Assembly: GCA_963741205.1 (NCBI GenBank)
Contig: CAVUHW010000018.1
Coordinates: 32,001-96,000 of the forward strand
From: Nitrospirota bacterium
Lineage (GTDB): Bacteria; Nitrospirota; UBA9217
Direction of reading: 5' to 3'
DNA: 64,000 nt
Each line of letters begins with the position of its first letter. The stretch's first letter is position 1. Below are positions 1 through 54,547 of this stretch, one piece after another. The notes beneath the pieces are model-generated. The model was not told where the DNA came from and ran no database searches. It worked only from the letters and a program-made list of their open reading frames with translations. Both the position numbers and the translations under genes were made by a program.

Positions 1-878
1 GGCAAGGAGAGGAGGCCATTTGTCATCGGGATCCTCGCTACCGGAAGCACCTTCGGCGTTTCGCTCGCCTATCTCGTAGGCGGCTGGGTGAATCAGCACT
101 ATGGCTGGCGTTCCGCCTTTTACGTGGCCGGGATCCCAGGGATTCTGGTCGCCGTTCTCTTTTTGTTTACCGTAAAGGAACCACGCCGAGGGGCCTATGA
201 CCGGGCAAACTCACGGAAACGCAGCACGTTTAAGGAAACCATCGGTTTTCTCGCCGGATCCAGAGCCTACATCTTCGTGCTCATCGGGTTCAGCCTCATG
301 GGAATCAGCGTCCATGCCCAAAGCGTCTGGAGCGCCGCATTCCTGATCCGGGTTCATCATCTCAATTCCAGCTGGGCGGGAATATTGATCAGCATCGGAC
401 AGCTAATGACCCTGCCGGGATATCTGGCCGGCGGAGCGTTGGCCGAACGATTGGGACGCGCAAAGACGGGCGATGGAAGGTCTGGGTGCCGGCCTGGGCT
501 ATGCCCTGACTGCTCCCACAACCATGATCTTCCTGATGTCCGACTGCCGCGCTGGCCCTGCTTCGCAGGGCTTTGCTTGTCGTCATTTGTCGGCCCGTTC
601 ATTTCGGTCCCGTGTTGGCTGTCTGCATGAACGTTGCGAAGGTGCGCATGCGCGCGGTATCCTCGGCGACGCTGATGTTCTTTGGGAATATCGTTGGCCA
701 GATCGTAGGGCCATTGGGCGTGGGTTATCTCAATGACATCATGATGTCAGCATTCGGCGACCTCGCCATCCGATATTCGATGACCCTAGGGGCATTATGC
801 GCGCTGATTGCCGCTGCTATTACGTTGATGGGTTCGCGATATGTTGTGGGGGATACCAGGCGCGCCGCAGAAGCTTGA
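1..878 (+). CDS. MFS transporter (Spinster-like), 5'-partial, frameshifted near 470-570
   Basis: ORFs 88..630 and 573..878; GWRSAFYVAGIPG..EPRRG motif and successive TM helices. Confidence 0.8.
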
Positions 879-893
879 AGACACCCCGACATC

Positions 894-969
894 AACCGCA
901 GAGGCGCAAAGATCGCAAAGGAAAACAGAGCTCTGCGTTTTTCTCTGCGATCTTTGCGCCTCTGCGGTT
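894..969. repeat. Intergenic palindrome (REP-like hairpin)
   Basis: aaccgcagaggcgcaaagatcgca (894-917) is the exact reverse complement of tgcgatctttgcgcctctgcggtt (946-969). Confidence 0.8.
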
Positions 970-981
970 TGCTTTTGTTTC

Positions 982-1756
982 ATGGTCCTGATTGCGATCC
1001 TCCTGATGCCGGCATCCTTATGGTCTTGGGGACCCCTCGGCCATCGCGTAGCCTCCAGGATCGCCGAGGTGCATCTAAGTCCTGCGGCCCGGTCAGCCGT
1101 TCGTGATCTGCTCGGCCCGGGCGTCACGCTGGCCGACGTAGCCAACTGGGCGGACGAACAAGCGGACTTCCGTGAGAGCCTCCCGTGGCATTATGTCAAC
1201 GTCCCGATTGCCGAATCCCCCTACAACCCCAAATTCTGCCAGCCCGCCGGCTGCGTGGTCGGTAAGATCGAAGACTTCATGAACGTGTTGCGGGACCCAA
1301 AGCAGCGCAGGCCCGAAAAGCAGCAAGCCCTCAAATTCCTGATTCACTTCATAGAGGATCTCCACCAACCTCTACATGTGGGGGACACGGGCAGCCGCGG
1401 CGGGAACCTGATTCCAGTGCGTTTCCTGGGGGAGGAATCGAACCTCCACAAAGTGTGGGATTCCCAAATCATGGAGCACCATAGCAGGAACGAACAAGTA
1501 TGGCTGTGGGAACTCACCGGCCTGGCAACCCCCAGAATGGTCGCGCAGTGGTCTAAGGGAACGCCGGAGGACTGGGCAACCGAGAGCCTGGCCGATGCGA
1601 AGCTGGCCTACCGCTCGCCTGCGGGCAAGGCTTTACTGAAACCCGGCGCACGACTGGGCAAGGATTACTGCAATTTCGCTTTGCCTGTCATTCAGGAACA
1701 GCTCGCAAAGAGCCGGGGTGAGAGTTGCCGCTGAGCTCAACGCGGTTTTCAAGTGA
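982..1756 (+). CDS. S1/P1 nuclease, secreted; terminal frameshift
   Basis: Signal peptide then WGPLGH, WAD, WHYVN, HFIEDLHQPLH and NLHKVWD motifs; likely start ATG 982. Confidence 0.9.
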
Positions 1757-2087
1757 CCCAAATCATTTGACATGGGCCGCCGGCCTTTGGTATTCCAGAT
1801 CCCAAATGCAGAAGCCAGCATCGACCGCGCCTAACGGCGGGGGCGCTAATGGAAGAAACTTTGCGCGAGCCAGAAGCTCGGAGCAGTCCCTCATGCTACT
1901 CGTTGGGCATCAGGTGACGCGGCGGGCTGAAGCCCGCCACCACATGATTTATTTGTTTTGTTTTACATGTGGGTCCGGGCTTTCAGCCCGGACCGGAATC
2001 GACTCTATTCAGGAGTTTCTGGAGAGAAGCCGGGAGCCGGTAGTCAGAATGCCTTCCCGGCTTCTTTCTTTTTGAGGAGAGGTATCC

Positions 2088-3209
2088 ATGATTCGCCTGA
2101 ACCTGCGGGCTAAGTCTTCCCTATTCTTGTTGCCGGGGGCCATCGCCGGTCTGTTGGTGTGGGCCGCTCTCGCCGAACAGCCCCTGCGCGTGAATGATGC
2201 CGCGTTGAAGAAGGCGGGAAAACGAGGCGATGTCTGGCTGACTTACGGTCTGGATTGGGCGGAGACGCGCTACAGCCCGCTCGAAGCAGATCAATGCGAA
2301 CAACGTCAGCCGGCTGGGACTGGCCTGGTCCTATGAGGTCGGGCCGGGGGGAGGCGGGCAGGAAGCCACACCACTTGTATGGAACGGCATGCTGTTTTCG
2401 ATTACCAATTGGAGCATTACCTTTGCGGTCGACGCCAGGACCGGCAAAGAGATCTGGCGCTGGGATCCGCAGGTCAACCAGACGGCTACCCGGCCGAAGG
2501 TTTGCTGCGGCGTGGTCAATCGCGGCATCGCCCTGTACGAAGGCAAAATCATCGTTCCGGTGATCGACGGACGGCTGGTCGCTCTTGACGCTCTTAACGG
2601 GAAGATCGTGTGGCAGGCGCAGGTGTCCTCGGTTGATGAGCATTACACGCTTACCATGGCACCCCGAATCGCCAAGGGCAAGGTGATCATCGGGGTGGCC
2701 GGCGGAGAATACCCCAACCGCGGATACTTCGACGCCTATGACGCCCAGACCGGCAAGAGAGCCTGGCGATTCTATACTGTCCCAGGGGATCCGTCGAAGC
2801 CGTACGAAAATGAGTGGTTGAAGAAGGCAGCGGAGACCTGGTCGGGCGATTTTTGGAAGGTAGGCGGCGGCGGTTCCGTCTGGGATGGAATGGCCTATGA
2901 CCCCGAGGCGGATCTGTTCTACGTCGGCACGGGCAACGGCGGACCATGGCCGGAAGAACTTCGTCACTCCAAGGGCAAGGACAACCTTTTTATATGCTCG
3001 ATTCTCGCGGTGAGGCCGGAAACCGGCGAGTTGAAGTGGTATTTCCAGGTGGTGCCGGGCGACTCATGGGATTACGACAGCGTCCAGCAACTGACGCTCG
3101 CGGATCTCGTGATCAACGGCAAGAAACGTAAAGTGATCATGCAGGCCAATAAAGATGGATTCTTTTATGTGCTCGACCGGATTACCGGAGAATTCATTTC
3201 CGCTGAACA
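2088..3209 (+). CDS. PQQ-dependent alcohol dehydrogenase family protein, frameshift ~2285, 3'-truncated at ~3209
   Basis: WLTYG..ETRYSPL, CCGVVNRG vicinal cysteines, GGGSVWD, GTGNG, WDYD, QANKDGFFYVLDR; similarity stops abruptly after TGEFISAE. Confidence 0.9.
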
Positions 3210-3602
3210 GAATGGTATGGGGGCTCGGAGCGCCCGCGGCATGTCCGTGGAAGACTACGCCCGCGCGGGACCCGGATTGTCGTGGCCGGAAACGATCCAG
3301 TCGCAGCCGCGCCGACCCCGTTTGCATCCCCAATGGTAAAGAAGTTGTTTATGAGCGTACCGTCGAATGCGGTGTGGGGGTTGTTCTTGTACAAAATCCG
3401 TCTCCACGTATTCGCCGTGTGTCGGCACGCAACCAAGGAGCCGGTGGCGAGACGCATGAATTCCGGGACCGGGTTCGTCGGAAGCAGGATTTTCGGGCGT
3501 GATCGGCGAAGCTGTCGGCGGGTCGAATATCTTTACGAATTCGTTTTCATTCCCGGCCACCGTCCTTCGGGGGATTGTAAATGCTGGAGTAGTGACTGAC
3601 AT
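3210..3602 (-). CDS. Multicopper oxidase chain B, copy 1, 5' fragment only
   Basis: MSVTTPAFTIPRRTVAGNENEFVKIFDPPTASP is nearly identical to the start of the gene at 8701; breaks off at PSPHTI. Confidence 0.8.
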
Positions 3603-3708
3603 GTTATATCTCCTTTCGCTTATCAAAGAAAGTTTGTAGTTTATGGTTTAGATTTTATGGTTTGTAGTTAACTACAAACTCGAAACTACAAACTCGTAAC
3701 AAATTATT

Positions 3709-5191
3709 CTATACCTCAGGTCCTGCAGCCACTCCCGTTCCGGTCTCGGCGGTCCCGGGCTTTGCAAGCGGCCCATTAATAGCCGGTGCGTTCGGGAAGG
3801 TTACGGGGACGCCGGGATGTACCGTCTGCGCCACCGAGGGCGTTCTGGTCGCCGGTGAAATTTATGCCCGAGAGCAAACCGTTATTGTAATTGCCACCCT
3901 GGGCAGTCTGTGTCGGCTCGGAATGGTCGTGCATGGGATAGCACATCGGCGAGAGCTGCACCGCTATAGGGGTTACTCCGGCGTTAATCCCCAGGGCCGG
4001 AAGAAATACAGCATGCTCTTCCGTCGGCGGCCAGACCGGCTTGTCCGGCCGGGATTGGTCGCCGGAGTATCCGCAAACTGCCGCCGAGAGCGGGTATGGC
4101 GACATGATTGGGGCCGATCCCGCAAATGTTCGGGATATCAGGCGGCCTCATGTAGGGCACCGTATAATTCCACACATCCAGCGGATGCAGGGTCATGGTG
4201 TCCACCCAGAGCGGATTGGACTGACCACGCCGTTGATGCTCGTTACCCACACGTGATTGGCATGGATGTGCATGGAATGGAGTTGCAGGCCCGCGTGCAG
4301 ACAGCGGATCAGCGTCGGCTCTCCAACCCGGTGGGTCGGGCAGATGAAGGGATTATTGTGGGAAAAGTGCCCGGACTGACCCGTGATCGTGAAATACTGG
4401 GGCCGATAGTTCCCGGAGGCGTCGAACGGCGCTACGAGGGGGTCTTCAGTAAACTTTTTTACGAAGTCTACCGGGTCGGCAAGGACTCCGGGGGGAAGGT
4501 TACCCACCTCGGCATTCAGTTTCGGGCTGCAATCATGACAGAGCCAGATGTGCTGCCGGAACGGCGGTGTATTGGTGGCCGGATTGCCGTCCTCCCACCT
4601 GAGACCCGGATAGTGGGTGGTGGAGCCGAAGTCGTCGTACATTTTCTGTACGTTCGCCGTCGGTCTGCTGTACGGAGTAAAATTATGCCCCAGACGCGGA
4701 GCTAATGGCATGACGATAAAGGCGCCGTGCAGCCCCATGACCCGGTTGACGGGTTCATTGAGGTTATCGTAGTAGAGATAGGTGCCGCCCCTCGGGGCTA
4801 AGAACCGGACGGTCTTGGTTGTACCCGGAGCGATCGCACCGGTGTCGACCACGCCTTTAATGAAGAAGCTGTGCGGCTCGTCCAGGTCGTTCGTTAAGAC
4901 GACCTTGATCAAGTCCCCCTCGGTGCAAAAGATGCTGGGAGCGGGACATTCGGCCGGGAAACGGTCCTCTTTGAATATCCAGAAATAGTTCAGGGCGGGG
5001 ATATTCGACGCAAGGGTATTGAAAGTGACCATCTGCTTCATCGCGTCGGTAATGTGAAAATTGAGGGTCTGGACCTTGACCGCGGCGTAGGCCTCGTCTT
5101 TGAGCATCCACGACAATCCGTTGCCGAGCACGAGGGCTCCGATGCCTGTTCCCGTATATTTCAAGAAATCACGTCTTTTCATGTCTTTCAT
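3709..5191 (-). CDS. Tat-exported two-domain multicopper oxidase-like protein (chain A), frameshifted
   Basis: KRRDFLK Tat signal; two cupredoxin domains; HSMHIHANH and YPMHDH only in domain 2; ORFs 4193..5191 and 3776..4105. Confidence 0.85.
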
Positions 5192-5200
5192 TTCTTCCTC

Positions 5201-6595
5201 CTATCCTATTTCTGTCCTATTGGACCAAGGCAACCACATTGCCGTGTACTTAATTCCCGCCTGGGCGGGACTTGTTCCAAATTCATCAAAAGCTGCACGC
5301 TCCGCCGGCAGCGTTAAATGCGGCGCAATCGGCAAAGGTTTGCGGAGTACCAGTGCCAACAGCCACCTGGATCGGTTGTCCCACGGGCTCATAATTAACT
5401 GACGCGTTGTTTACATTCACGGTGCCGTTAATCGGGCAGGCGCCGGTCGCTGTTTTGAAGATCCGGGGCGCGGTATCCACGGTTGAAATCGTATATTTAC
5501 CCTGCCGCGCATCCGTCAATCGCGGGCGTCCATAGCATGTCAACGTCGCCGCTTATCTTGTTGTTCGTCGTTCCAGCCGCGTCGTTTAAGGACAGTGTCT
5601 CATCCTTCAGGTTCAAAGCAAGGTCCAGTTTGAACGTCGTGTTGCCGCCTGTAGCGGAGGTCACCGAGAAACTTCCCTGAGTAGTGGTCACAGCAGTGTC
5701 TGACCCATCGGCATTGTGGGTAAAAGTGCTCGTTTCGACCAATCCATTGTAGTTAAAGGTCTCCACCTTTTCAGCCACGGCGCCCTGCGCAGGTGTCGTA
5801 ACTACAAATGTGCCAGTCGAGCTCTTCGCCCCCCTGACGACTTGATTGTCGCTGATGAATTCACCATCCATGACGGCTATCTTGGTCATAACAGCAAGGT
5901 CGACGGCGGAGAACGTCTTTTCCGTCAGCGCTTTCGCAACCAGAGTCGAAGTGACTCCGTTATTGTCCGTGCTCCTCACGCTTTCGATGTGCAGGTTGCC
6001 GTCCAGTTGCGTAAACAAGATATCGTCCTGGCAGTTCTTGAAGTTAATATCATAGGAAGATGTTACAGCCGGGTTGGTAGCCTCATCATAATTATTCGTC
6101 CCGTTTATCGTGACGACAGCGTCGGCGTTGGAGCAGGCATGCGCTGGGCAAGGTAGTGCTGACTGAAGTCGCCCGCATTGCCTTTAATGCCCCAACTTTT
6201 TTCACGACACTTTGGATGGCCGCGGAGCGAGACAGCTTCGTCATTTCCGCCATCATCGTCGCGAGGATCGGGTCTACTTTCCCGATATCGCTGCTCTTGG
6301 ACACGGGTGGCGCAAATCCAGCCGGCTGGGAGTTCAGGCCGAGGGCCACAGCCACTTGAAACTGCGTATCAGCCGCGGCTTGCGTGCCTGCCAACGCCGC
6401 AAATCCCGCTGCTGCCTGCTGGGGCGTATTGAATACCGCAGGCGGGTGTAGCTGAACTGGGGAGTGGGCCAACGGGAACCGTCGGTTCGGGAGTGGTGGT
6501 AGGCGGTGGAGGTGCACTGCTACTGCTCTTATGACAAGCAACACCAACAACCAATATCAAACAAAAATGGCGAATACTGCCAACAACTTCTTCAT
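5201..6595 (-). CDS. Lipoprotein of unknown function, multiple frameshifts
   Basis: ATG 6595 with GGAGG RBS; signal ending VGVA-C then Ser/Pro/Thr linker; fragments 6092..6550, 5497..6018, 5286..5543, 5201..5392. Confidence 0.65.
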
Positions 6596-6830
6596 AAAGA
6601 CCTCCTTTAAACTCAACATTTCAAAAACCTTATCTTCATGTCACATTCTAGCAGACTTTTTTCGTACATGAGTCTTAAAAACCAGTTAAGGCTGACTCAG
6701 CTGCCGTTTTTTTATGTTATTTCCACCTCCCAACGTTTACCGAATTAATAAACAAAGAGTTTTATTAAGGCAATCCATCGTTCAATATATTGGGCATCAG
6801 ATAATAGACAAGTGAAATGATTTAAAATAA

Positions 6831-6846
6831 AGCAAAGTATGTGCCA
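6831..6846 (-). promoter_or_regulatory. sigma54 -24/-12 promoter for the lipoprotein-MCO operon
   Basis: Minus strand TGGCACATACTTTGCT. Confidence 0.8.
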
Positions 6847-6920
6847 GCACTAACAGAATTTAACATTATTTATAAAACAAATGGTTATATAAATTAGCGT
6901 CCCACATTAAGCCCAAACGA

Positions 6921-6965
6921 GTTCATTATAGACCGGCTAAATTGAGCTGTACTGCCATTATGAAC
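6921..6965. promoter_or_regulatory. Putative enhancer (tandem GTTCA-N3-TGAAC-like palindromes)
   Basis: gttcattatagac-c-ggctaaattgagc and tgccattatgaac; the motif recurs at four other sigma54 promoters. Confidence 0.6.
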
Positions 6966-7155
6966 CTCATAATTAATGAAATCATAAGTTGCCATTTTTT
7001 TCATTTTTCTTCATGTTCTTAATTATTTTATCAATATGGCATCAGAAATCTATAGGCAAAAATACCTATTTTTGACAGGCAAGATAGGCAATGAGATTGT
7101 GCCTTTATTGAGGACCTGAGCAATTACATTGCTGAATGGTAACAGGAAATGACTA

Positions 7156-7183
7156 TGCAGGCGGGTTTAAATGCCGCCTGCAT
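7156..7183 (-). terminator. Probable terminator hairpin
   Basis: atgcaggcgg...ccgcctgcat downstream of MCO chain B copy 2; no clear U-tract. Confidence 0.45.
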
Positions 7184-7298
7184 CGCGAATCATTGGCTCT
7201 GCCATAGGGTGATGAATGACATGATTTCGCTCTAGCTCTATGAGTGAGAGGACGATATTATCCTGTTTTTTTCACTCCTCCGAGGCCATAATCAAAGA

Positions 7299-8701
7299 TC
7301 ACGCGATCTTGAACGGAATCACGCCGTTCAGCAGGTGCCTGCCGCCCGAGTTGTGCGTGAAATGGATCCTCGCTACGTCGTTCACGGCCGGTGCGTCGTC
7401 TCCACCCGGATCAGCGCGTCAAAGCGCCGCGCCGTGGAAAGCTCATACGGGGTGCCTTTCGGCAGCAGGAACGGATGGTTGTACTGGTTGAAAGGCGGCA
7501 CGCCCAGGGCCCTGCCGTCGAAGGCGATGATCACGACGTCCACCGGGAAGGTGATCGTGATCGGCACGTATGCCGCGCAGAGGGCGCGGACCAGGATGGT
7601 CTGGCCCCGTACCGCATTGATCGCGGTCTGCATTCCCGTCACGCCGCTGTTCAGTTCCTTGGGAATGACGGGTATGGCAGGGTCAAGAACCGCATCCGCC
7701 GTGCTTCCCCCTTTGCCCAGGAAATTCACACCGGTGCAGACGAAGTAATCGGGGTTGTAGTTGTTGAAGGCAAAAAAGCCTCCCCCGCCCGGGTTCTGGT
7801 GGAAAATATCATTGGTGCCGGGTATGCTTCCCATATGCGGGAAGGTGGTATGGTCGCCCGGCGCGAACTGGTTGTGCCACGCGGAGTCGATGTCGTCGAG
7901 CACCCAGAGGGCCTCCACGTCGTAGGGGACGGTAAAGGCGTGCGGGTCCGTGGGGAAGACTCCGGCCGGATCCGGGGAATGCAGGGGAGTCGAGTTGAAC
8001 CCCGGGAACTGCGGGAAATTGGTCAGGTTGGCCGCTGTCCTGCGCGGATATCCGCCGGCGTTCGGTTGGAATACAGGTTGCCCGGGGCCGCTGTTCGTGT
8101 TGGGGTTATTAACCGTATACGCATCGGGCGGCTCGATGATCAGAAAGCCGTACAGACCGAACTCGAAGTGCTGCACCGTGTTCCTATGGCAGTGGTAGAA
8201 ATAGCTGCCGATGAAATTCGGCTGCCACTGGTAAGTGTAGCTTCCGAACTCCATGGAGCAGTGCCCCACGCCGTCGTTTAAGGGCGTGGGCTCGATGCCG
8301 TGCCAGTGAATGGTATGGGGGCTCGGAGCGCCCGCGGCATGTCCGTGGAAGACCACCCCGCGCGGAACCCGGATGGTCGTGCGCCGGATAAGGTCCGACC
8401 GCGGCCGCGCCGACCCCATTCGCCATCCTCAATAGTAAAGAAGTTGCTTATGATCGTGCCGTCGAATGCAATGTGGGGGTTGTTATCGTACAAAGTCCTT
8501 TCCACGGTATGCGCAGTTGTCGCCACGATCAACAGGGAGCCGTTCGCGCAGAGCCATGAATTCCGGGACCGGGTTTGTCGGATTCAAGAGCTCGGGCGTG
8601 GCCGGCGAGGCTGTCGGCGGATCGAATATCTTGACGAATTCGTTTTCATTACCGGCTACCGTTCTTCGGGTGATGAGAAAAGCAGGGTTACTGACTGACA
8701 T
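7299..8701 (-). CDS. Two-domain multicopper oxidase-like protein (chain B, copy 2), no signal peptide, frameshifted
   Basis: HTIHWHG and YHCHRNTVQHFEFGL in domain 1; domain 2 lacks Cu motifs; ORFs 8483..8701, 8278..8532, 7382..8419. Confidence 0.85.
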
Positions 8702-8734
8702 GCTTGTTATCCTTTCTTGTTGCCGGAATATTCA

Positions 8735-9425
8735 TTAACGTGGTCTTGATTGTGTCATGTATGAGGGAGCGACCTCGATATACCCTTTGCTGACGGCATA
8801 TTTTACGAGATCGGCTATATTTCTCATTTTCAATTTTTTTGTGATAGAGGCGCGATGAGAGCTTACCGTGCGAACGCTGATGAAAAGAAGCCCGGCAATC
8901 TCCATGGATGATTTTCCTTCGGCAATGAGCTTTAACACTTCCCGCTCACGGGTCGTCAGGCATTCATGCGAAATAACGAGTTTGACAATCCTCCAGTACG
9001 GTCTTTCCCCAGCATTCGGCCAACTCCTGTGAAAGGGAGGGAGAAACGTACAATCCCCCTCGCCGGATCCTTTCTATGGCCTTGAAGAGTTCCGTATCGG
9101 CATCTTCTTTCAAAAGGTAACCATCGGCTCCTGAGGAAAGCGCCTGGTGGAGATAATTCCGGTCCCTGTGCATGGTCAGGATCAGCACCTTCACGCCGGG
9201 ATGCCGGGACTTGATCTCGCTGACAGCCTCGATCCCCCGCATTTTCGGCATCGAGATATCGACGACGGCCATGTCGGTGACGATCTTGTTCAGGAGACCG
9301 ATGAGCTCCAAACCGTCTCCTGCCTCGCCTACGACTTCCATCTCCCTCGATTCCTCGACGATCCGCCTCAAGCCCTGTCGAAGCAGGACGTGATCGTCAG
9401 CCAATGTGATGCGATAGGGGTTCAT
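8735..9425 (-). CDS. NarL/LuxR-family response regulator, frameshift ~8965
   Basis: REC domain (ADDH, DISMP, YLLKE) plus LuxR HTH (LKLIAEGKSS..IAGLLFISVRTV..HRA). Confidence 0.9.
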
Positions 9426-9426
9426 T

Positions 9427-9651
9427 TCAAATGCTTTCCCGTTTTACTGCGCTCCGGTAGATCTCGCACTCTTCAAAGTTCTTGCCGCAATAATAGATCG
9501 CCAGATCGATGTTCTGGCTGTTAATGCTGGCGACGAAACAATCAGCGAAAGGGTCCCCGACGAAGGGGCAATGCCCTCCTGCTACGGATGAGATCCGGTC
9601 CTTTATTCCCTGCTTATGAGGTCGGTTTTCCTGCAGCATAGAGAACGTCAA
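9427..9651 (-). CDS. Small four-cysteine protein
   Basis: 74 aa ORF filling the gap between two co-oriented regulators; CPF..DCF..YYC..FEEC. Confidence 0.55.
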   Translation of the reverse strand: MTFSMLQENRPHKQGIKDRISSVAGGHCPFVGDPFADCFVASINSQNIDLAIYYCGKNFEECEIYRSAVKRESI

Positions 9652-9673
9652 AACCCTTTCGTTACAATAATCA

Positions 9674-11041
9674 TTATTGCTCTGCTCGTCCCGACTCCCT
9701 GAGTTTCCTCTTAAGAGTGGACAGGGAGATTCCCAGGACCTTGGCGGACTTAGTCAGATTCCCGGAGAGCGATGTAAGGGCGCACTGGATGGTCTCCTGC
9801 TCCACCTCCGCGAGGGTCTTAAAACTATTGCCGGACGATGAAGCGGCCTTCGGCATGCACATATTCACGGCTCCGGGTCTCCCGAGAAGAAGCGAAGGCG
9901 TAAGGACCGAGTCCTTTTGCAGGAACAGCGCACGCTCAAGGATGTTCCGCAGTTCGCGCACGTTGCCAGGCCAGTCGTATAGCTGGAGCTTCGCAAGCTC
10001 CGTTTCGGGCAATTCGACGCTCCGTCCCCGCGTGATCTTCGAGAGCAGGTAGGAGCAGAGCTGGGGGATGTCCTCCCGGTGCTCCCGTAGCGGCGGGATA
10101 TGGATGCGGACCACGCTCAAGCGGTAGTACAGGTCCTTGCGGAAGGTCTTTCCGAGCGCGCTTTCCAGTTCCGCGTTCGTCGCGGCGATTACGCGCACGT
10201 TTACGGGCGTGACGGCCGTGCTGCCGATGCGGCGCATGGTCCCTGTCCTCGAGGACCCCCAGGAGCTTGGACTGGAGGTGAATGGGCATGTCGCCGATCT
10301 CATCCAGGAAGACCGTGCCGCCTTCGGCCACTTCAAAGAGGCCTTTTTTCGCGCCCGCAGCGCCGGTAAAGGCGCCTTTTTCGTGGCCGAAAAGCTCGGC
10401 CTCGATCAGGTTTTCCGGCAGTGCGGCGCAGTTGATGCTGACGAAGGCGGAGCCCCCGAAGGGGCTCTTGTAGTGGATCGCCTTTGCCACGAGGTTTTTA
10501 CCGGTGCCGGTCTCGCCGGTAATCAGGACCGGCCCGTCCATTTCCGAGGCCATGTCTACGAGCGTGAGGACCTCGGCGAAGGCGCCGCTTGCCCCCGACG
10601 ATGACCGCCGTCTCGCGGTCCTTTTCGCGGGCAGTAGTTCTGGATCTGCTCCACCCGCTCCAGGTCAAGGGTCCTGAGGGTGTTGTCGACCGTGAGTTTG
10701 AGCTCTTCGATATCGAAGGGCTTCGACAGGTAGTCATGCGCCCCCAGGCGCACCGCTGTCACGGCGTTTTCAAAACTGGGATAGGCGGTAACGAAAATAA
10801 TCTTGGACTGGTCGTTCCTTTCGAGGATGGCCGGGGCAAGGGCGTGCCCTTCCCCGTCGGGAAGCTTCTGGTCCAGAAGGACGATATCTATCTTTCTTTC
10901 GGCGCAGACCGCAAGCCCATCGGCGCTCGTATGCGCGGCCAGGACCTCAAGCCGGTCGTTTTCGAGGTAATCCCGCACGTTATCGCACAATACCTTTTCG
11001 TCGTCGATGATGAGGAGCGTCTTTCTGCTGACTGGCGGCAT
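9674..11041 (-). CDS. NtrC-family sigma54-dependent response regulator, frameshifted
   Basis: REC; [30 protein letters not shown]; Fis HTH. Confidence 0.92.
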
Positions 11042-11064
11042 GGTGTCCCTCCGGAAAGACACTT

Positions 11065-11080
11065 ATCAATTTGTGTGCCA
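11065..11080 (-). promoter_or_regulatory. sigma54-type promoter with variant -12 element
   Basis: Minus strand TGGCACACAAATTGAT. Confidence 0.6.
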
Positions 11081-11176
11081 GCGGGATTCAAATGGAGGGA
11101 CCGGTGCTTCTTCAATGAAATGATGAATTTACGTGGTGCGAGGGAATGCGATCACGTCGAGGAGAGATGTGGTGGG

Positions 11177-11206
11177 CCACACTTATGTGGCGCCTCAGTT
11201 GTGGGG
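11177..11206. promoter_or_regulatory. Putative enhancer (tandem CCACA-N4-TGTGG)
   Basis: ccacacttatgtgg-cg-cctcagttgtgggg; near-identical copy at 19715. Confidence 0.65.
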
Positions 11207-11288
11207 AGCCACGATAAAAGCACTGTCAGTTTACAAATCACGAACAAGTTCCAATATCCAAGAATCAAATGCTAGCTGCTTATGCATC

Positions 11289-12814
11289 CTAGTTGCCCAC
11301 TTGAACAGGGGCGTTTTTTCCTTCCGTGGTGCCATCCCCCAACTGACCATGACTGTTCCCTCCCCATGACCATGGGGTGCCGTCCAGATTTCAATACCAG
11401 GCTATGCATGGCTCCGGTAGAGATTGAGACCCACTTTGTATCCGTCCCTATCCGGACAGGGGAATTCTTATTTTCCGTGGTTCCGTCCCCCAACTGTCCA
11501 CTGTTGTTGAACCCCCATGCCCACAGGGTGCCGTCCTTTTTCAAAGCTATTGAATGATGACTTCCTGCCGAAACTTTGGTCCACATGGTATCCGTCCCGA
11601 TCCGGACCCGGGGATGTCTTATCTGTTGTTGTACCGTCACCAAGCTGCCCATAGTCATTATATCCCCACGCCCATAGCGTGGAGGTTGCCAGGCAGCCAT
11701 CGCACAGATACAGGGCCAGGGTATGATAATCTCCCGCCGAGACTGCAACCCACCTGGCTTCCGTCCCGATCCGGATCGGAGCGGTTTTAGCCGCCGTAGT
11801 CCCGTCTCCCAACTGCCCATGCGAGTTATTTCCCCACGCCCACAGGGTCATGTCCTTTTTCAGGGCCACGGTATGAAAAGCCCCGGCCGAAACCCTGGCC
11901 CATGCGGCATCCTTCCCTATTTGGACAGGCGCGGTTTTGTCGATTGTCGTGCCGTCCCCCAACTGTCCATCAGAGTTATTTCCCCATGCCCACAACGTAC
12001 CGTCGGACTGCAAGCCCACGCTGTGAAGATCTCCAGCCTCGATTTCAATCCATTTTTTGTCTTTTCCTATCCGGACAGGTACGGTTTTATCCGCTTTCGT
12101 TCCGTCTCCCAACTGTCCGTGGGAGTTATTTCCCCACGCCCACAAAGTGCCGTCGGATTTCAACGCCAGGCTGTGGTCCCGTCCCGTCGCGATTGCGACC
12201 CACTTCATGTCTTTCCCGATCCGGACGGGAATTGTTTTGTCCGCCTTCGTGCCGTCCCCCAACTGTCCATGGGAGTTATTTCCCCACGCCCACAGAGTGC
12301 CGTCGGATTTCAGGGCCAGGGAATGTGCCGCGCCGGATGCCACCGGTTCACTCCTCGCGATGAGGATCCGGCTCCCCGCAAGGGAGTTGTTGCTCTCGTT
12401 AGATTCAGCGACTTGATTTCGATAGTCCGCGACAGCTCCGATGTAATAGACGCCCGCATTCACGGAGATGAGGTTTGTCCTGTAGACGAATGAATCCGCC
12501 TCCCCCGCTTTCAGGGAGTCCGTCTCGTTTCCCTTCGGAGATCCTATCCGGAAATCGCTCGTTGTGATGACAGGGCCTGTTGAGAGGAAAAATCCGGTCC
12601 TGAAGTAGCCCGCGTCGCCGTCGCCCTGATTCTGCACGGTGGCCGTTATTGTTACGAGGTCTCCGGGGGCTATAATTGACGGGGACGCGGAGATCGAGGT
12701 CACGACCAGATCCGGGGAACCGGCGGCCGCGACGCGGGGCGAGAATAGAAATATAAGAAAGAGAATAAAGAACGAAAGTATCTGGCCTTTCGAAAATACG
12801 CGCATGCCATGCAT
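11289..12814 (-). CDS. Secreted CARDB + RCC1-repeat protein, frameshifted near 3' end
   Basis: Signal peptide; [19 protein letters not shown] (CARDB); about seven [25 protein letters not shown] repeats. Confidence 0.9.
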
Positions 12815-12847
12815 AGATTATTTCCGCCCTCCTATTGGCATAAAAAA

Positions 12848-12947
12848 CTCCCTCTCCTTCAAGGAGAGGGCTGGGGTGAGGATGGGTCAACAGCGGGAGA
12901 CACGAGACCCATCCCCCTCTCGATCTCCCCCTTGAAGGGGGAGAAGG
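12848..12947. repeat. Pair of REP-like palindromes (CCCTCTCC..GGAGAGGG..GGATGGG type)
   Basis: Two inverted copies here; related pair at 36132-36223. Confidence 0.6.
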
Positions 12948-14193
12948 TTAATTCGTCGGCACGTTCCTGATCTGCCCCCTGATTTCTCCGTCGGGATTGG
13001 CCGCGGTGTGAATGTTCAGATACAGCCTGTCGCTGATCAACGAGCCGAGTCGTTCCGCGCTCAGGAAGGTATCTGCTGGAACGTGTCCAGGTCCCCGACG
13101 TGCTGGGTGTTCCCCACCCTGCAGAGCTAATGAGGGTCGGCCCGTTCACCCCCGCAAAACCTTGATGGATGTGCGCACGGTCCGCGAGGCTGCTCGGCGT
13201 GTTGAACGCGATCGATCCGCTAATCTTTCCGGTCCCCAGGTTGACGGTCAGATTCCCCGTGCCGCTGCTGACCGGCGCGTTCACGGGCGGCACTTCCTGG
13301 TTGCCGGAGAGCGACACGGCCGGGATGGTCGTGACCGGATAAACGATGTTCCCCGCGAGTTCGCTTACGGGAAGCTGGAAGTTTTGTGAGTTGACGGTGA
13401 AATAGAGGCCGTCATTCACCAGGGCCGTGAGCTGCGGGGCGTTCAGGGACGCGCCTGCCGGAAAGGTAAAGGTTCCCGCTGTCGTGCCACCACCCTCCAA
13501 GGTGATGATGGATGGAGTTGTCGGACCGCAGGTGGATGTGCGCCTCCGTGGCATTGCTCGTGAGGCCGGAGAAAGTTATAGACCCGCTGATCGCTCCAGT
13601 CCCGAGGTTGACCGTCATGGTAGCTGAGCCGGCCCCCGTGCTCCCCGTGCCCGCGACAGGAGTCAGCGGCGTCGTTATGGTGATGTTCGGTAACACGATA
13701 TCACCGCGTTTTGCGTTCGGAAAAGATTGCGTGTCGACCCGGAAGAAGAGCCCGCCGAACCCGAGGGCGCTCAGCTGCAATTGGTTCAGGACTTCGTGCC
13801 CGCCGGAACGGTCCATGCCCCTGTTGTGCTGGTGCTGCTGACGAGGGAGACGATGAGACTTGTTGCGGGAGCCGCTGTGCTGTCATGGATGCCAACCGCG
13901 AGCGTGGTGCTCGAGAGTCCTGAAACCAGAACTGCTCCCCCGATCTCACCGTTATCCATATTTGCCGCAAGCTTCCCAATGGCCGTGCCTGAAGCGGGCG
14001 CCCCGGTCGTGGTCAGCATCGATGTTGTGAACGCGACGAGCCGCGCTGCTGTGCCGACAGGTGTAGGCGTCGGAGGCACGGGCCCTCCGCCTCCGCCGCC
14101 GTCCCCGCCGCTGCTGCAGGATACAATAAATACGGCCGATATGAGGAACGCGCTCAGTGCAATCGCAAATTTTACGAAACTATGCTGCTTCAT
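12948..14193 (-). CDS. CHRD-domain lipoprotein, frameshifted
   Basis: Lipobox IVS-C; LSGNQEVPPV, AHIHQG, GLYFTV and terminal HT..NP.GEIRGQI CHRD signatures; two to three repeats. Confidence 0.8.
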
Positions 14194-23206: not shown

Positions 23207-24860
23207 TGAATAACCCGCCCCTGAACCATTTACATGGTTGCAGTGGGGGTTTCACGGATCATAGAAGCATGCAGTCCCTGAGTAGTTCCCAAGGCCTGTC
23301 TTATCTGCCTCTCCCCGCGCGTGACTTCGGCCGGTTCCCGGCCTAGTTTTTCCTTCTTCCTTAGCCGCATGGCGCGCTTGTGATACTTTACGGCAATTTC
23401 GCCGGACACAAGCATTTTTATGCCGCGCTTCTTGATAACGATAGACGCATTGGTATCGGCGTTTTCCGTAAAGCCACAGCTCTGGCAATCGAACACCGCC
23501 TGTGACTGGCGATTGTCCGGGTGAGTGTGCGAACACTTCGAACACTCCTGTGAGGTGCCGTGCGGCGGTATGGCGATAACGAGCTTGTTGCGTCGTGAGG
23601 CTTTGTACGTCGTAAAGAGTTTTACCTTGCCCCACGCTGATTCGAGTATGGACTTGTTGAGACCGGCCTTGGCCTTTGCCCCGTTCGCAATATACGTCCC
23701 GCCGGCTGACTTCTTAGGTTTTGGCGCTCTGGTCATGTTCTTGACCTTGAGGTCCTCGAAGACGAACACCTCTGCGGGTGAATCCACGAGCTTGCGGCTG
23801 GCCTTATGCGCGAAATCATGCCTCACGTTGGCAGCATACGCCTGGCACCGGGCTGATTTCGCAACTGATTGCCTAAAGCGGCCGGATCCTTTGCTCCGCC
23901 TCGCCATTTGCCTCTGATATCTCTTCTTCCGGGCATCCTTTTTTAACAGACGCTCTTGTTGGATGCTGGAGAAGTCATACATAAATCCGTCGCTCGTTGC
24001 CAGCGGGATTTTCACCCCTCGGTCCATTCCCAGGGCAACGGTATTGAGACTCTCTGATGACATGCCGCCGTAAAGCTCGAGAAGTTCCTGCTCGCTTAAA
24101 ACTGCGCCTTGCTTCTCATAGGAGAAGGAGACATACCATTTCCCGGACTCCCGGGAAATGGTGATAGCCGCCGGAACCTCGTACTCATCATGAGCCTTGA
24201 ACTTAAGTTCGCCCAGATCGACCGACTTCGTGCCAAGCATCAGCCGGTGCTCATATATTGTTTTGTCTTGCCGCTGTTTTGAGCCTCCAGTAGGAACGAA
24301 CCTGAACAGCTCGCTGGTAATCCAGACGGACTGCCGTCCTGCCTTCTTTTTATAAGCAGGGCGACCAGCCAGTCCTGTCAGGTACCTCTTGCAGGCGCCC
24401 ATGAACCTGGTTGCGCCATTCCTTAGGATATGAGACGGCACATCATACAGAAACGGGGCGAGTTTCTTGTCCTTGAACTGGGCGTATTGCTGATCAATCG
24501 GCGGCTGTAGTCCGGTTAGCGACAGTGAATGATTCCGGAAAGTACGGAAATAACGCTCCTCGGCAACCTTGGCGTTGTAGATAAACCGCTGGCAGCCCAT
24601 CCACTGCGCGAGAATATCGGGCTGCTCCGTTGTCGGGTAGCAACGGAATTTTATGCCGCTTGAAAATCGCCATATCTCTAATATAGGTGATGAATCCTGA
24701 TAGTGCAACTCAATAATACGCTGCAGCCATCGGTACTATATTATAAGATTGCATATCGTTTCGTAGCACAGACAACGCACCAATCCACATCCAAAACAAG
24801 TCCGCTTGACCCCCTCCTGGCGCTTCACCCCTAGCAGGGGGAATGCGCGGACTTTAGTTC
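23207..24860 (-). mobile_element. IS200/IS605-family element carrying tnpB, with a possible tnpA remnant
   Basis: tnpB ORF; the minus-strand right end reads ..ggcgggttaTTCA; hairpin-forming left-end region ~24810-24860; boundaries inferred. Confidence 0.7.
23230..24708 (-). CDS. tnpB: TnpB RNA-guided endonuclease
   Basis: KFRCYPT N-terminus; RuvC GMDRG, FEDL, NADTNA; zinc finger CSKC..CQSC; true start possibly 24673. Confidence 0.93.
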   Translation of the reverse strand: MHYQDSSPILEIWRFSSGIKFRCYPTTEQPDILAQWMGCQRFIYNAKVAEERYFRTFRNHSLSLTGLQPPIDQQYAQFKDKKLAPFLYDVPSHILRNGATRFMGACKRYLTGLAGRPAYKKKAGRQSVWITSELFRFVPTGGSKQRQDKTIYEHRLMLGTKSVDLGELKFKAHDEYEVPAAITISRESGKWYVSFSYEKQGAVLSEQELLELYGGMSSESLNTVALGMDRGVKIPLATSDGFMYDFSSIQQERLLKKDARKKRYQRQMARRSKGSGRFRQSVAKSARCQAYAANVRHDFAHKASRKLVDSPAEVFVFEDLKVKNMTRAPKPKKSAGGTYIANGAKAKAGLNKSILESAWGKVKLFTTYKASRRNKLVIAIPPHGTSQECSKCSHTHPDNRQSQAVFDCQSCGFTENADTNASIVIKKRGIKMLVSGEIAVKYHKRAMRLRKKEKLGREPAEVTRGERQIRQALGTTQGLHASMIRETPTATM

Positions 24861-30107: not shown

Positions 30108-31476
30108 TTACTCTTCTTCCGTAAGCGAATGCACTTCTGCCCGTCCGAGCCTGACATCGGCATGGCGGACCCCGAGTTCCCGCACATCGGTCACCGCCAC
30201 CATCGGGAAAAATTTTGCAAAAAGCGTATACATGAGCATGAACCCGGCGAAGGCAGCCGCGGTCACGGAAAGCTCCACCCACGAGGGAGAATAGGTGCCC
30301 CAGACGAAGGGCATGTTCTTATGAGAAAGCGACGGAATGATGATAAGGTAGCGTTCGATGAACATGCCCACGTTGACCAGGACGGTGATCGCGAGCATGG
30401 CTTTCACCGAACGCCTGATCTTCTTGAAGCAGAGGGCCGTGATGGGCAGCACGGCGTTGCCGATAAGCATAAGGATGAGCAGCGGCGTATATTTTCCTGC
30501 CATGAAGCTGAAGACCTCCCATTCGATCGGATGATGAGCGTACCACGTTGTCTGGACCTCGACGAAATAAGCATAGGCCCAGAGCAGGCAGATGACAAGC
30601 AGGAGCTTCCCCATGTTGTCGAAATGCAGCGGAGTGAGATAATCCTCCAGATGGAAAACCCTCCGGATGATGATCATGAGCGTGATGACCGCTGCAACGC
30701 CGGAGGTGATCGCGCCGATCACGAAGTAGGGAGGAAAGATCGTGCTGTGCCATCCCGGGACCACGGTGACGGCGAAGTCCCAGGCAACGATCGAATGCAC
30801 CGAGACGGCCACCGGGATGATGAGTGCCGCCATGAGCGTCGAGGCCTGGCGGAACACCACCCACTCCCGGGCCGTTCCCCGCCACCCCATGGCAAGGACG
30901 GCATAGATCTTTTTTCGCCAACCCGGAGGATCGGTCGCGGACCACGGCAAGGTCGGGAAGCATCCCCAGGTAGAGAAAGAGGCTGCTGCCGATGATATAG
31001 GTCGTGATCGCCGTCACATCCCACAAAAGCGGAGACCGGAAATTCGGCCAGAGCCCGCGCTGGTTGGGATAGGGCATGAAATAGTAGACGACCCAGTTGC
31101 GGCCCAGGTGAATGACCGGGAAGAGGCCGGCAACGGTGATGCTGAAAACGGTCATTGCCTCGGCGGCGCGCAGGATCGGTCTGCGCCAGTTGGCCTGGGA
31201 GAGGCGCAGGATAGCGGACACCATGGTCCCCGAATGGGAAAGGCCGACCCAGAAAACAAAATTGACGATGTAGATGCCCCACATGACCGGCCGGTCCAGG
31301 CCGGTTACGCTCAAGTCGGTCATCACCTGGTAGGTGAAGGCGGCGAGTCCCCACGCAACCACTGCCCCGAGGAAGAAGGCAAGCCCGTACCACTGCCAGG
31401 TCGGAGTGCGCATTGAGGAAAGCAGCTCGTCGTTAAGCTGTCCAGCGCTTTTTTCAGCGATTGCATGTTCAGACAT
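30108..31476 (-). CDS. actC: Alternative complex III NrfD-family membrane subunit C, frameshift ~30930
   Basis: WGIYIVNFVFWVGLSHSGT, RAAEAMT, HLGR, NFRSPLLWD, VHSIVAWDF, GWHSTIFPPYF. Confidence 0.9.
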
Positions 31477-39175: not shown

Positions 39176-39191
39176 TGGCACACACTTTGCT
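39176..39191 (+). promoter_or_regulatory. sigma54 promoter
   Basis: TGGCACACACTTTGCT. Confidence 0.85.
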
Positions 39192-52923: not shown

Positions 52924-53101
52924 ATCTCCCCGGATGACGATAAGAGACCCCGAATGCCGGTCAGATCCCGGGGCAGCTCTCGATAGGAGTCGTGATGGAT
53001 TCCTCCAAACCGGCCATCAGAAGTGTCACGAGACGAGACATGCGGCCGCCGGGTCGTTGAGTACGAACCAGCGGTGGGATGTCGATAGCGGGGGATGCGT
53101 T

Positions 53102-54547
53102 ATGAAAATCCGGAACATAGTACTGCTTACCGCGCTGTTATTATCACTACTGGTCACGCGGCCGATTGACCGCGTAGAGGCGAATGACGCCCCCCCGGAG
53201 AAGAACAGGCAATGCCTCGGTTGCCACGGCAAGCAGGAAATCACCATACACTTCCAGGACGACGAGTCGGTATCAGGCCAGATTGATGAAAAAAAACTAA
53301 ACTCGTCAGTCCATTCCTCGTTTTTCTGTACCGATTGTCATTCCGAATTCTCGGCATACAGCCACCCAAAAAGGAATTTCCGCAACCGGGAGCAATACCG
53401 GGTCCGTGCTTCCCTCGCCTGCAGACGCTGTCATTCGGACGAACAGATCAGGACCAGGCCCGTTCATCTCGACGTGTTACGCGGCGAGAAGTCGGGCAAT
53501 CCGCCGGTCTGCGTCGACTGCCACGGGGCACACACCGTCATTCGCGTCACGAGAAAAAAATCGCTGAGTGACGAGGCAAAACGCTGCCTTCAGTGCCACC
53601 GGCAGGATGTCCAGCTGTCATATCAGAACGGTGAGCGCCGTTCTGTATCCGTCGACCCCGCGCACCTCGAGGCATCCGCCCACAATAAACTCAGTTGTTC
53701 CGACTGCCATTATGGCTTTTCCTCAGAAGAACACCCGAAACGGCACTTCCGGACCCAGCGGGATATGACGATAGCGTCCGCCGAACTGTGCAGGCGGTGT
53801 CATTTCGACATATACACCAAGTTCCAGGACAGCATCCACTATACCAAACTCAGCCAGGGAATGCTCAATGCCCCGGTCTGTACCGACTGCCATGGAGCTC
53901 ACTCAATCGCGTCGGTCGGCAAGGAGCGCATAGCAAGCGCCGGCCGCTGTCGGAAATGCCATCTCGACACGTACAATGTTTACGCGAAAAGCGTTCACGG
54001 AGGCGCACTGCTGAACGAGCACAACAAGGACGTACCCGTTTGCGTGGACTGCCATAAAACTCACGATATCCAGAGTCCAGGCACCATTGAATACCGGGAG
54101 CGGATCCCGGAAATGTGCAGTAAGTGCCACGCCAATAAAGAAATCATGGGAAGATACGGACTGTCCACGGACGTCATGAAGACCTACCTCTCAGATTTTC
54201 ACGGCGTCACGCTGGGGTTTTACATAAAACAGAAAAACCTGCTCCCCAAACAAATGAAGTCAATCGCCGTGTGTACCGACTGTCATGGCACGCACAACAT
54301 CAACAGTACGGTAGGTCCTGACGCGACCATCGTCAAGGCGAACCTCGTACAGCGATGCCGAAAATGCCATGCTGACGCAACCGAGGACTTTCCCGATGCG
54401 TGGATATCCCACTACAAGTCGAGCCTGCAGCGGGCGCCGCTTATTTTTATCATCAGCATATTTTACCGGATATTCACGCCTATCATGGTCATCGGTCTGG
54501 TGCTGCAGATACTGCTGCACATCTGGCGTTATGCGGTAAACCGGTGA
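53102..54547 (+). CDS. 13-heme cytochrome c with C-terminal TM anchor
   Basis: Signal peptide from ATG 53102; 13 CxxCH motifs counted. Confidence 0.92.
   Translation: MKIRNIVLLTALLLSLLVTRPIDRVEANDAPPEKNRQCLGCHGKQEITIHFQDDESVSGQIDEKKLNSSVHSSFFCTDCHSEFSAYSHPKRNFRNREQYRVRASLACRRCHSDEQIRTRPVHLDVLRGEKSGNPPVCVDCHGAHTVIRVTRKKSLSDEAKRCLQCHRQDVQLSYQNGERRSVSVDPAHLEASAHNKLSCSDCHYGFSSEEHPKRHFRTQRDMTIASAELCRRCHFDIYTKFQDSIHYTKLSQGMLNAPVCTDCHGAHSIASVGKERIASAGRCRKCHLDTYNVYAKSVHGGALLNEHNKDVPVCVDCHKTHDIQSPGTIEYRERIPEMCSKCHANKEIMGRYGLSTDVMKTYLSDFHGVTLGFYIKQKNLLPKQMKSIAVCTDCHGTHNINSTVGPDATIVKANLVQRCRKCHADATEDFPDAWISHYKSSLQRAPLIFIISIFYRIFTPIMVIGLVLQILLHIWRYAVNR

Follow-up and report, generated by a model that had tools for sequence, protein, structure and literature searches.

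The 64,000-nucleotide stretch of contig CAVUHW010000018.1 analysed here (positions 32,001 to 96,000 of the forward strand, from a Nitrospirota bacterium; hereafter the window) contains two neighbouring genes that encode homologues of multicopper oxidases, termed chain A and chain B. The order of genes at the locus is a sigma-54 activator, a LuxR-type regulator, B, an AT-rich gap, a lipoprotein-like gene, A, and B', what is left (the 5' end) of a second, truncated B paralogue. Both A and B are recovered as pieces of open reading frames (ORFs), and the ends of the gene calls agree with alignments of intact relatives: P0002 (493 residues) aligns to A from 5191 to 3712, and P0122 (462 residues) aligns to B from 8701 to 7302. 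The Pfam family Cu-oxidase_3 (PF07732) matches both chains and identifies them as multicopper oxidase homologues. We consider it probable that A and B function only as a heteromer, a multicopper oxidase descended from a type-C two-domain ancestor, with one type 1 (T1) copper site, one trinuclear cluster formed between the chains, and a signal-less B that hitchhikes on the twin-arginine translocation (Tat) signal of A.

The two chains carry complementary sets of putative copper ligands. All of the motifs named in a preliminary description of this DNA, which was made from the sequence itself, are present on the minus strand at the positions collected in Table 1, and the complementarity it proposed holds in both protein families. 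Database searches yielded 572 relatives of A (from 1669 candidates) and 1032 of B (from 3907 candidates), of which the best 120 of each were examined; the motif counts refer to the 119 best relatives of each chain, with the window's own protein excluded. All 119 B relatives have both the HWHG motif and the pattern HCH-x5-H-x4-L, and HCH is found in none of the 119 relatives of A. The pattern H..H.H..H occurs in 117 A relatives and HDH in 105, and 11 of the 14 proteins without HDH are at least 440 residues long. The histidines of the A motifs (all four of HSMHIHANH and both of HDH) and those of B are invariant in alignments of 37 and 50 sequences. Outside the motifs, histidines or cysteines conserved at 90% or above are limited to C65, H110, H158, H228 and C446 in A and to H114, H143 and H230 in B, and the alignment shows no conserved histidine or cysteine in the second domain of B.

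The full set of T1 ligands and eight cluster histidines is found only in A plus B, and in neither chain by itself. Domain 1 of B is predicted to hold the single T1 site (His, Cys, His and an axial Leu) together with four cluster histidines; the other four would come from domain 2 of A, with none expected in domain 1 of A or domain 2 of B. Each single chain would be inactive by itself, to judge from these ligand sets. The axial residue, first described as apparently Leu or Phe, is Leu in every one of the 119 B relatives. The earlier caveat that a corrected sequence might restore the missing motifs is answered by the intact relatives: they lack the same motifs, so the absence is a trait of the family as read from its sequences and not a result of frameshift damage.

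Table 1. Features of the A–B locus and of other parts of the window (positions in the window; strand given where assigned)
Feature	Position	Strand	Basis or remark
Chain A gene	3709..5191	-	ORF pieces; Pfam Cu-oxidase_3, E-value 5.5e-9; alignment to P0002
Chain A, RRDFLKY	5176-5156	-	Twin-arginine motif
Chain A, AYA-AV	5092-5078	-	In the twin-arginine signal region (5084..5191)
Chain A domain 1, EPHSFFIKG	4879-4853	-	Usual ligand position, ligands lost
Chain A domain 1, YLYYDN	4780-4763	-	Usual ligand position, ligands lost
Chain A domain 2, HSMHIHANH	4279-4253	-	Proposed source of two trinuclear-cluster ligands
Chain A domain 2, YPMHDH	3940-3923	-	HDH where a T1 domain has HCH; two proposed cluster ligands
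Chain B gene	7299..8701	-	ORF pieces; Pfam Cu-oxidase_3, E-value 1.2e-9; alignment to P0122
Chain B start, MSVSNPAFLITRR	8701	-	No signal peptide
Chain B conserved N-terminal arm, about 42 residues	8576..8701	-	Not a signal peptide; lies on chain A in the model
Chain B domain 1, HTIHWHG	8317-8297	-	First His a proposed T1 ligand; HWH two proposed cluster ligands
Chain B domain 1, YHCHRNTVQHFEFGL	8197-8153	-	Cys and later His proposed T1 ligands; flanking His proposed cluster ligands; axial Leu
B', remnant of a second B paralogue (5' end only)	3211..3602	-	DNA identity to B; tblastn pieces
Lipoprotein-like gene, frameshifted	5295..6595	-	tblastn; directly upstream of A
Sigma-54 consensus match	6831..6846	-	About 240 nucleotides upstream of the lipoprotein-A-B' genes
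Sigma-54 consensus match	39176-39191	+	
Sigma-54 activator gene	11062-9674	-	Split into overlapping ORFs
LuxR-type regulator gene	8735-9425		Split into overlapping ORFs
MFS gene	1-878		Split into overlapping ORFs
RCC1 gene	11272-12814		Split ORFs
CHRD gene	12859-13816		Split ORFs
PQQ-dehydrogenase gene, 3'-truncated	2088 to ~3200	+	Adjoins the end of B'
AT-rich region	6600-7300		GC content 0.42-0.46 against about 0.57 around it
TnpB-like mobile-element gene	23230-24708	-	492-residue ORF with IS605 OrfB / Cas12f1-like TNB domains
NrfD-like membrane protein gene	30319-31476	-	
Multihaem cytochrome c gene	52934-54547	+	c7/c3-type domains

Structural comparison places both chains among the two-domain oxidases. 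Foldseek searches with AlphaFold2 single-chain models (predicted local distance difference test, pLDDT, of 81.5 for B and 73.1 for A) match many solved multicopper oxidases to each chain with a probability of 1.00. By sequence profile as well as by Foldseek, the best matches of both chains are 3g5w (the blue copper oxidase of Nitrosomonas europaea) and 2zwn (the metagenomic laccase mgLAC), which we take to be type-C enzymes, with 3gdc, 7rab and copper nitrite reductases next in rank. The motifs of B correspond position by position to PHTIHWHG and YHCHVNVNEHVTMRGM in domain 1 of 3g5w, with Leu opposite Met, and the HS.H.HANH motif of A aligns with HAMHSHGH in domain 2 of 2zwn. The placement of the T1 site in domain 1, which defines type C, is seen in B through HTIHWHG and HCH, and domain 1 of A is degenerate; the provision of both half-sites by one gene product, also typical of type C, is not found, as the half-sites lie on different gene products. 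Profile-profile alignment relates A to B with a probability of 78.7% and an E-value of 1.7e-5, and pairs PHTIHWHG of B with ENHNFFIKG of A, YHCH...GL of B with LYHD...GL of A, and HSLHVHANH of A with TLKVSFPVD of B. A and B are distant paralogues with complementary ligand loss, and NCBIfam contains no specific family model for either chain.

Two other identities were considered and rejected. Entries for the copper nitrite reductase NirK match domain 1 only, with E-values of 1e-7 to 1e-9; the NirK model TIGR02376 scores 30-32 bits against a cut-off of 296, and domain 2 of A has at least four invariant histidines, against the one that domain 2 provides in NirK to a three-histidine T2 site formed between chains beside a T1 site. 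A copper-less homologue of the SufI/FtsP kind, considered for A alone, does not agree with the invariant H..H.H..H and HDH that A keeps.

The export signals of the two families are as unequal as the preliminary description supposed from this one pair. An N-terminus was called Tat-like when RR or KR in the first 35 residues is followed, no more than 8 residues later, by an uncharged stretch of moderate hydrophobicity that is at least 13 residues long. Of the 119 relatives of each chain, 107 of A and none of B have such an N-terminus; the 12 A relatives that fail have truncated gene calls, late RR motifs or runs with one charge. Sec-like N-termini are likewise absent from all 119 B relatives, and if only the 94 whose N-terminus is complete are counted, not one is Tat-like or Sec-like. 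These counts replace a test at a stricter hydropathy threshold of 2.0, which only 13 of 119 A relatives pass and under which the count of 0 of 119 for B is uninformative. The NCBIfam model TAT_signal_seq (TIGR01409) scores 20.6 and 20.5 bits in A relatives against a cut-off of 16.7, and an RR motif is present in 77 of 80 A ORFs from the genome loci described below. The N-terminus of B is itself conserved (MS..P...IPR.S..G.E.EWVKMFDPP) and has no conserved twin arginine, the corresponding pair being RR, RQ or RK. B reaches 650-830 residues in Geomonas and Citrifermentans, and in part of the Chloroflexota and Nitrospirota, by the addition of CarboxypepD_reg/SdrD_B-type beta-sandwich domains; these extra domains are at the C-terminus, not the N-terminus, and the long variants (among them L030 4454-6703, L031 11523-13739 and L038 11473-13962) are still without a signal peptide.

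Genes for A and B occur together. Scanning genomes with the alignment of A produced 145 pattern matches, 131 of them confirmed, and the 80 that were kept define 78 loci. In each of the 73 testable loci, B is the next gene after A and shares its strand, in keeping with the co-occurrence on which the first account had staked the heteromer; L014, L044, L058, L065 and L078 are untestable because the sequence ends at the end of A or within 113 nucleotides of it. The gap between the genes has a median of 56.5 nucleotides and does not exceed 131 nucleotides in 63 of the 66 pairs in which both genes score above 500 bits. Tandem A-B-A-B pairs are present in five loci (L018, L038, L056, L075 and L077); one tandem pair is strongly diverged in L056 and in L077 (295-322 bits for A and 165-256 bits for B). 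No B-like ORF without an A in front was found in the 78 loci, a sample selected through A. The loci span at least 11 phyla, archaea included: Thermodesulfobacteriota (24 loci), Bacillota (17), Myxococcota (8), Chloroflexota (8), Nitrospirota (6), Methanobacteriota (2, both Methanoperedens), Actinomycetota (2) and four phyla with one locus each, with 7 of the 78 loci left without a phylum assignment. Cultured carriers include Neobacillus niacini (L010) and Citrifermentans bremense (L030).

Natural fusions join the two chains in a single protein. A profile search with B among 1.84 billion representatives returned 2671 clusters at E-values up to 1e-3, 161 of them at or below 1e-30, and the best 150 were examined. 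In P0310 (931 residues), P0370 (598 residues, incomplete) and P0279 (792 residues), all three diverged from A and B, an A-like half is followed by a B-like half in the order of the separate genes, which gives four cupredoxin domains in one chain, with a linker in place of the N-terminal arm of B. P0310 and P0370 begin with the Tat motif MKRREFIKY, and they carry HIH and HPH in the A-like half and HTIH.HG and YHCH, with an axial Met, in the B-like half. P0279 has the axial Leu and, unusually, HCH in the A-like half too, so that it may possess a second T1 site. The three fusions align collinearly throughout, linker included, with identities of 36% and 55%, and are therefore not the product of a single gene-calling accident. 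The C-terminal tail of P0310, about 220 residues long, contains two similar Lys-rich segments. Among the more distant B-like matches, most lack a signal and carry their motifs in domain 1 alone, and because they share this design the two-gene arrangement may reach well beyond the subfamily. A search with P0002 among proteins of 864-2465 residues found no fused forms, which is weak evidence.

Modelling of the complex, proposed at the outset as a check on the heteromer, returns a confident heterodimer with ligand motifs in its interface. The model was built from the adjacent pair of the Nitrospirota locus L001 (residues 37-512 of A and 1-430 of B, with a 50-sequence alignment for each; L001 numbering is used for the model throughout). 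The interaction prediction score from aligned errors (ipSAE) is 0.95 for A plus B as the median of three runs, against 0.00 for the best of three controls; the ipSAE mark used is reached by 58 of 80 solved complexes and by 2 of 110 mismatched pairs, which are rough counts, with our own alignments used. The runs share at least 82% of contacts, the pLDDT of the partner is at least 87, and the interface, with about 420 contacts, is very large. It includes H311, H314, H316, H319, C446 and H452 of A and H128, H130 and H143 of B, and so takes in the HSMHIHANH motif and the second His of YPMHDH in A, together with the HWH histidines of B. Residues 1-42 of B touch residues 48-61 and 416-417 of A with the lowest expected errors, and residues 356-466 of A lie on residues 130-176 of B. 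Segments that fall below a pLDDT of 50 in the single-chain AlphaFold2 models (1-34 and 134-149 of B and much of 357-469 of A) form the interface of the complex. This fits chains that order each other, and is only suggestive since two different predictors are compared. The model supports, short of demonstrating, the binding of A and B to each other.

These results bear on the possibility that A and B act separately, A as a periplasmic protein without redox copper and B as a cytoplasmic blue-copper protein, with adjacency reflecting co-regulation. Each chain does have a complete two-domain fold, and copper-less Tat-exported relatives of multicopper oxidases exist, SufI (FtsP) being one; SufI and entries of the type of PDB 6syy are among the matches. 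Invariant half-sets of cluster histidines would be purposeless in isolated chains, however, and the fusions, the strict synteny, the modelled complex with motifs in its interface and the disordered monomer segments that become interface also speak against separate action. We regard separate action as very unlikely.

A second alternative keeps the heteromer and changes its stoichiometry: A and B might be mixed in a ring (A2B, AB2 or larger), with one productive interface per ring and perhaps further partners. It draws on the nearest solved relatives, 3g5w and 2zwn, as two-domain oxidases, a group that an extract of PMC3192119 describes as homotrimers, and on the window itself, with its one A, one B and one remnant of B. 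The genes nevertheless stand at a 1:1 ratio in each of the 73 loci, A and B are duplicated jointly, the fusions join one A-like half to one B-like half, and the 1:1 model already has its approximately 420 contacts. Each chain is also about 130-170 residues longer than a two-domain oxidase of 300 residues, and the additional length could replace a third subunit. A mixed ring is unlikely on this evidence.

Under the preferred reading, a 1:1 pair of A and B, the ancestral gene would have been duplicated and the copies would have lost complementary halves of the copper sites. B would have kept domain 1, with the blue T1 copper, its non-coordinating axial Leu and four cluster histidines, and A would have kept domain 2 with the other four cluster histidines, in addition to the Tat signal. 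The chains might fold and dock in the cytoplasm, the N-terminal arm of B settling on domain 1 of A and the long C-terminal insert of A wrapping domain 1 of B, so that domain 2 of A and domain 1 of B would form one inter-chain trinuclear cluster. The complex would then cross the membrane by way of the Tat signal of A. We infer that B is the hitchhiker because the signals are asymmetric, because fused forms carry a single signal for both halves, and because the complex is modelled as an obligate one. Outside, electrons of the substrate would enter at the T1 site of B and pass over the Cys-His bridge to the cluster, where O2 would be reduced to water. The complementary motifs, the gene order, the fusions, the unequal signals and the modelled interface can be read from sequence or model, and the preliminary interpretation came out as foreseen wherever computation could address it; copper binding, assembly before export, hitchhiking, oxidase activity and the substrate are predictions of this scheme.

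Several observations weigh against it. The interface of the model contains 5 of the 8 proposed cluster histidines, H450 of A and H166 and H168 of B being absent, and the score of the complex perhaps reflects in part a memory of solved two-domain oxidase trimers. Conservation of the interface exceeds that of the remainder only slightly (0.693 against 0.644 in A, p 0.035; 0.746 against 0.705 in B, p 0.054). That YPMHDH of A is the counterpart of the second HxH motif in two-domain oxidases is suggested by position and by the model; the equivalence stays positional because the C-terminal HDH segment of A matched nothing in the PDB, either as a single sequence or as a 28-sequence profile. Genes for B without A would be missed, since the loci were selected through A. 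Partial evidence from the side of B is given by 12 listed B relatives on contigs equal in size to those of listed A relatives, and by 7 more on contigs equal in size to loci that hold A. In the window itself, the reading frame shifts at about 4223, 4080, 4050 and 3805 in A and at about 8555, 8375 and 7392 in B; the B of intact length has no A in front, and the B' that follows A ends at 3211, right after the PHTI codons and inside the first copper motif.

The last of these points raise the possibility that the locus is dead in this genome, with real frameshifts and a real truncation of B', A and B being pseudogenes of a family that functions elsewhere. The frame changes (four in A, three in B; roughly one per 400 nucleotides) and the cut in B', which is joined to a truncated PQQ-dehydrogenase, are what decay would leave. 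Overlapping split ORFs are found, however, in many unrelated genes of the window as well, over positions 1-14000 and beyond, among them those for the MFS protein, the sigma-54 activator and the LuxR-type regulator, and likewise in the RCC1 and CHRD genes. Because unrelated genes are split alike, indels of the assembly are likelier than the decay of one locus, and the frame changes are probably assembly errors. Between the shifts, A and B of the window keep 85-94% identity to the intact P0002 and P0122 (89% across the first 323 residues of A and 86% across 329 residues of B). A dead locus has, in our estimation, a small chance of being the correct explanation.

B' was initially taken for a second copy of B, starting at 3602. 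Its homology to B is clear, with 84% DNA identity to the 5' end of B (8701-8308); a second functional B it is not, being a truncated paralogue with internal frame changes, left with a single copper ligand, as the gene stops after PHTI. Its position directly downstream of A agrees with the canonical order of A then B. The converging PQQ (pyrroloquinoline quinone)-dehydrogenase gene is truncated too, covering positions 60-335 of the 595 of the Pfam PQQ profile, and the junction at 3195-3225, where both genes are cut, is either genuine, the outcome of a rearrangement or deletion, or a chimera made in assembly. A tblastn search with intact relatives found no further fragments of A or B in the window.

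The lipoprotein-like gene upstream of A is recognised through a 440-residue protein that lies upstream of A in L001 (6540-7862) and gives three collinear tblastn pieces with an E-value of 7.6e-56. It is uncertain whether this gene is part of the A-B system: a homologue in the same position is found only in L001 among the 78 loci, and no Pfam or NCBIfam family matches the protein. About 700 nucleotides, largely the AT-rich region, separate B from the lipoprotein gene, and there are no ORFs of 50 or more residues between 6560 and 7240. Promoters of sigma-54 follow the pattern TGGCAC-N5-TTGCT, and the consensus TGGCAC-N5-TTGCW has two perfect matches in the window against 0.07 expected, one of them upstream of the lipoprotein gene, with the sigma-54 activator gene nearby. 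An Rfam scan of the whole window gave no match. Elsewhere in the window, a TnpB-like mobile-element gene is present, and the multihaem cytochrome c and the NrfD-like membrane protein fit an anaerobic, metal- or sulfur-respiring host.

No single family neighbours every A-B pair. NHL/PKD propeller proteins are found in 28 of the 78 loci, di-haem cytochrome c peroxidase/MauG-like proteins in 18, and CusB-like proteins with a YHS domain in 12; CusA-like pumps, SCO1/SenC with YtkA, and a multicopper oxidase of about 1390 residues are each found in 10. The last of these, with Cu-oxidase_3 and Cu-oxidase_2 domains, is encoded just downstream of A-B in loci that include Bacillus/Neobacillus and Methanoperedens (for example L025 14700-18884, L035 13119-18575 and L040 13291-18363). 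A conserved third subunit was considered and rejected, as no neighbouring family exceeds 28 of 78 loci and the lipoprotein is shared with L001 only. The copper-efflux and copper-chaperone neighbours in some genomes hint at a link to copper handling, and a metal ion such as Cu(I) is a reasonable guess for the substrate.

On balance, we lean towards regarding A and B as representatives of an unrecognised structural class, an obligate two-gene, four-cupredoxin-domain, Tat-hitchhiking oxidase that occurs also as a single-chain fusion, in at least 11 phyla of mostly anaerobes and in Methanoperedens; its high potential is predicted because the axial Leu is invariant. If this is true, a catalytic cluster shared by the products of two paralogous genes, and mirrored in single-chain fusions, would constitute a new architecture and a clear natural case of duplication and complementary degeneration into an obligate partnership. 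It would be the first multicopper oxidase proposed for Tat hitchhiking, which bears on the site and timing of copper insertion. Hundreds of entries annotated as multicopper oxidase domain-containing protein would be predicted to be inactive alone, and their expression as single-chain laccases would fail. A high-potential oxidase might act at the oxic-anoxic boundary, for example by oxidising Cu(I), Fe(II) or Mn(II) or by scavenging O2. With family members in Geobacteraceae, Syntrophobacteraceae, Nitrospirota, Chloroflexota, Neobacillus and Methanoperedens, the substrate may matter for the handling of metals or oxygen in sediment and groundwater.

To our knowledge, multicopper oxidases are built either as single chains of three or six domains or as homotrimers of two-domain chains. 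The open-access PubMed Central and bioRxiv literature, that on Methanoperedens included, yielded no description of a heteromeric oxidase of the A-B kind. A passage of PMC3192119 presents the two-domain oxidases, divided into types A, B and C, as homotrimers whose active site forms where monomers meet. The type-C enzymes 3g5w and 2zwn have their T1 site in domain 1, with HTIHWHG and YHCH motifs like those of B; the H..H.H.H motif of their domain 2 resembles that of A; and their cluster is assembled where domain 1 of one subunit meets domain 2 of a neighbour, as is proposed for B and A. Unlike type-C oxidases, in which one gene product contains both half-sites, A and B divide the half-sites over two paralogues of about 430-510 residues, with long inserts and docking arms, an axial Leu instead of Met, and a signal on one chain.

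The Streptomyces laccase SLAC, a type-B enzyme, forms its inter-chain cluster between domains of HxH/HDH type and HxxHxH/HCH type. The preliminary description used it as the model for A and B, and an inter-chain cluster is the trait that they would share. SLAC itself is rejected as the nearest analogue, since the type-C enzymes 3g5w and 2zwn match better; it is, unlike A and B, a homotrimer of one chain with T1 in domain 2, and it is not among the top matches.

In NiFe hydrogenases, the Tat signal is on one subunit and a signal-less partner is carried along. A and B resemble such hitchhiker enzymes in having a twin-arginine signal on one subunit (A) only, as far as their sequences tell. A portion of PMC3578206 describes NxrB, of the DMSO-reductase-family pair NxrAB, as a signal-less partner carried along through Tat. 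A multicopper oxidase exported in this way was not found described in the open-access PubMed Central papers and bioRxiv. In the fungal heterodimers POXA3 and PeNL, the large subunit carries all copper sites, so that, unlike A and B, they have no split cluster. The small subunit of such fungal "novel laccase" heterodimers is a small protein of unknown function in the relevant lines of PMC10443355. The two-domain oxidase Nmar_1354 of Nitrosopumilus maritimus (PDB 9cck), which is among the fold and sequence matches, resembles A and B in forming a trimer with unlike chains; an excerpt of PMC11761707 gives its arrangement as alpha-alpha-alpha', the unlike chain being the same gene product without an extra cupredoxin domain. 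In contrast to A and B, every chain of Nmar_1354 contains both half-sites.

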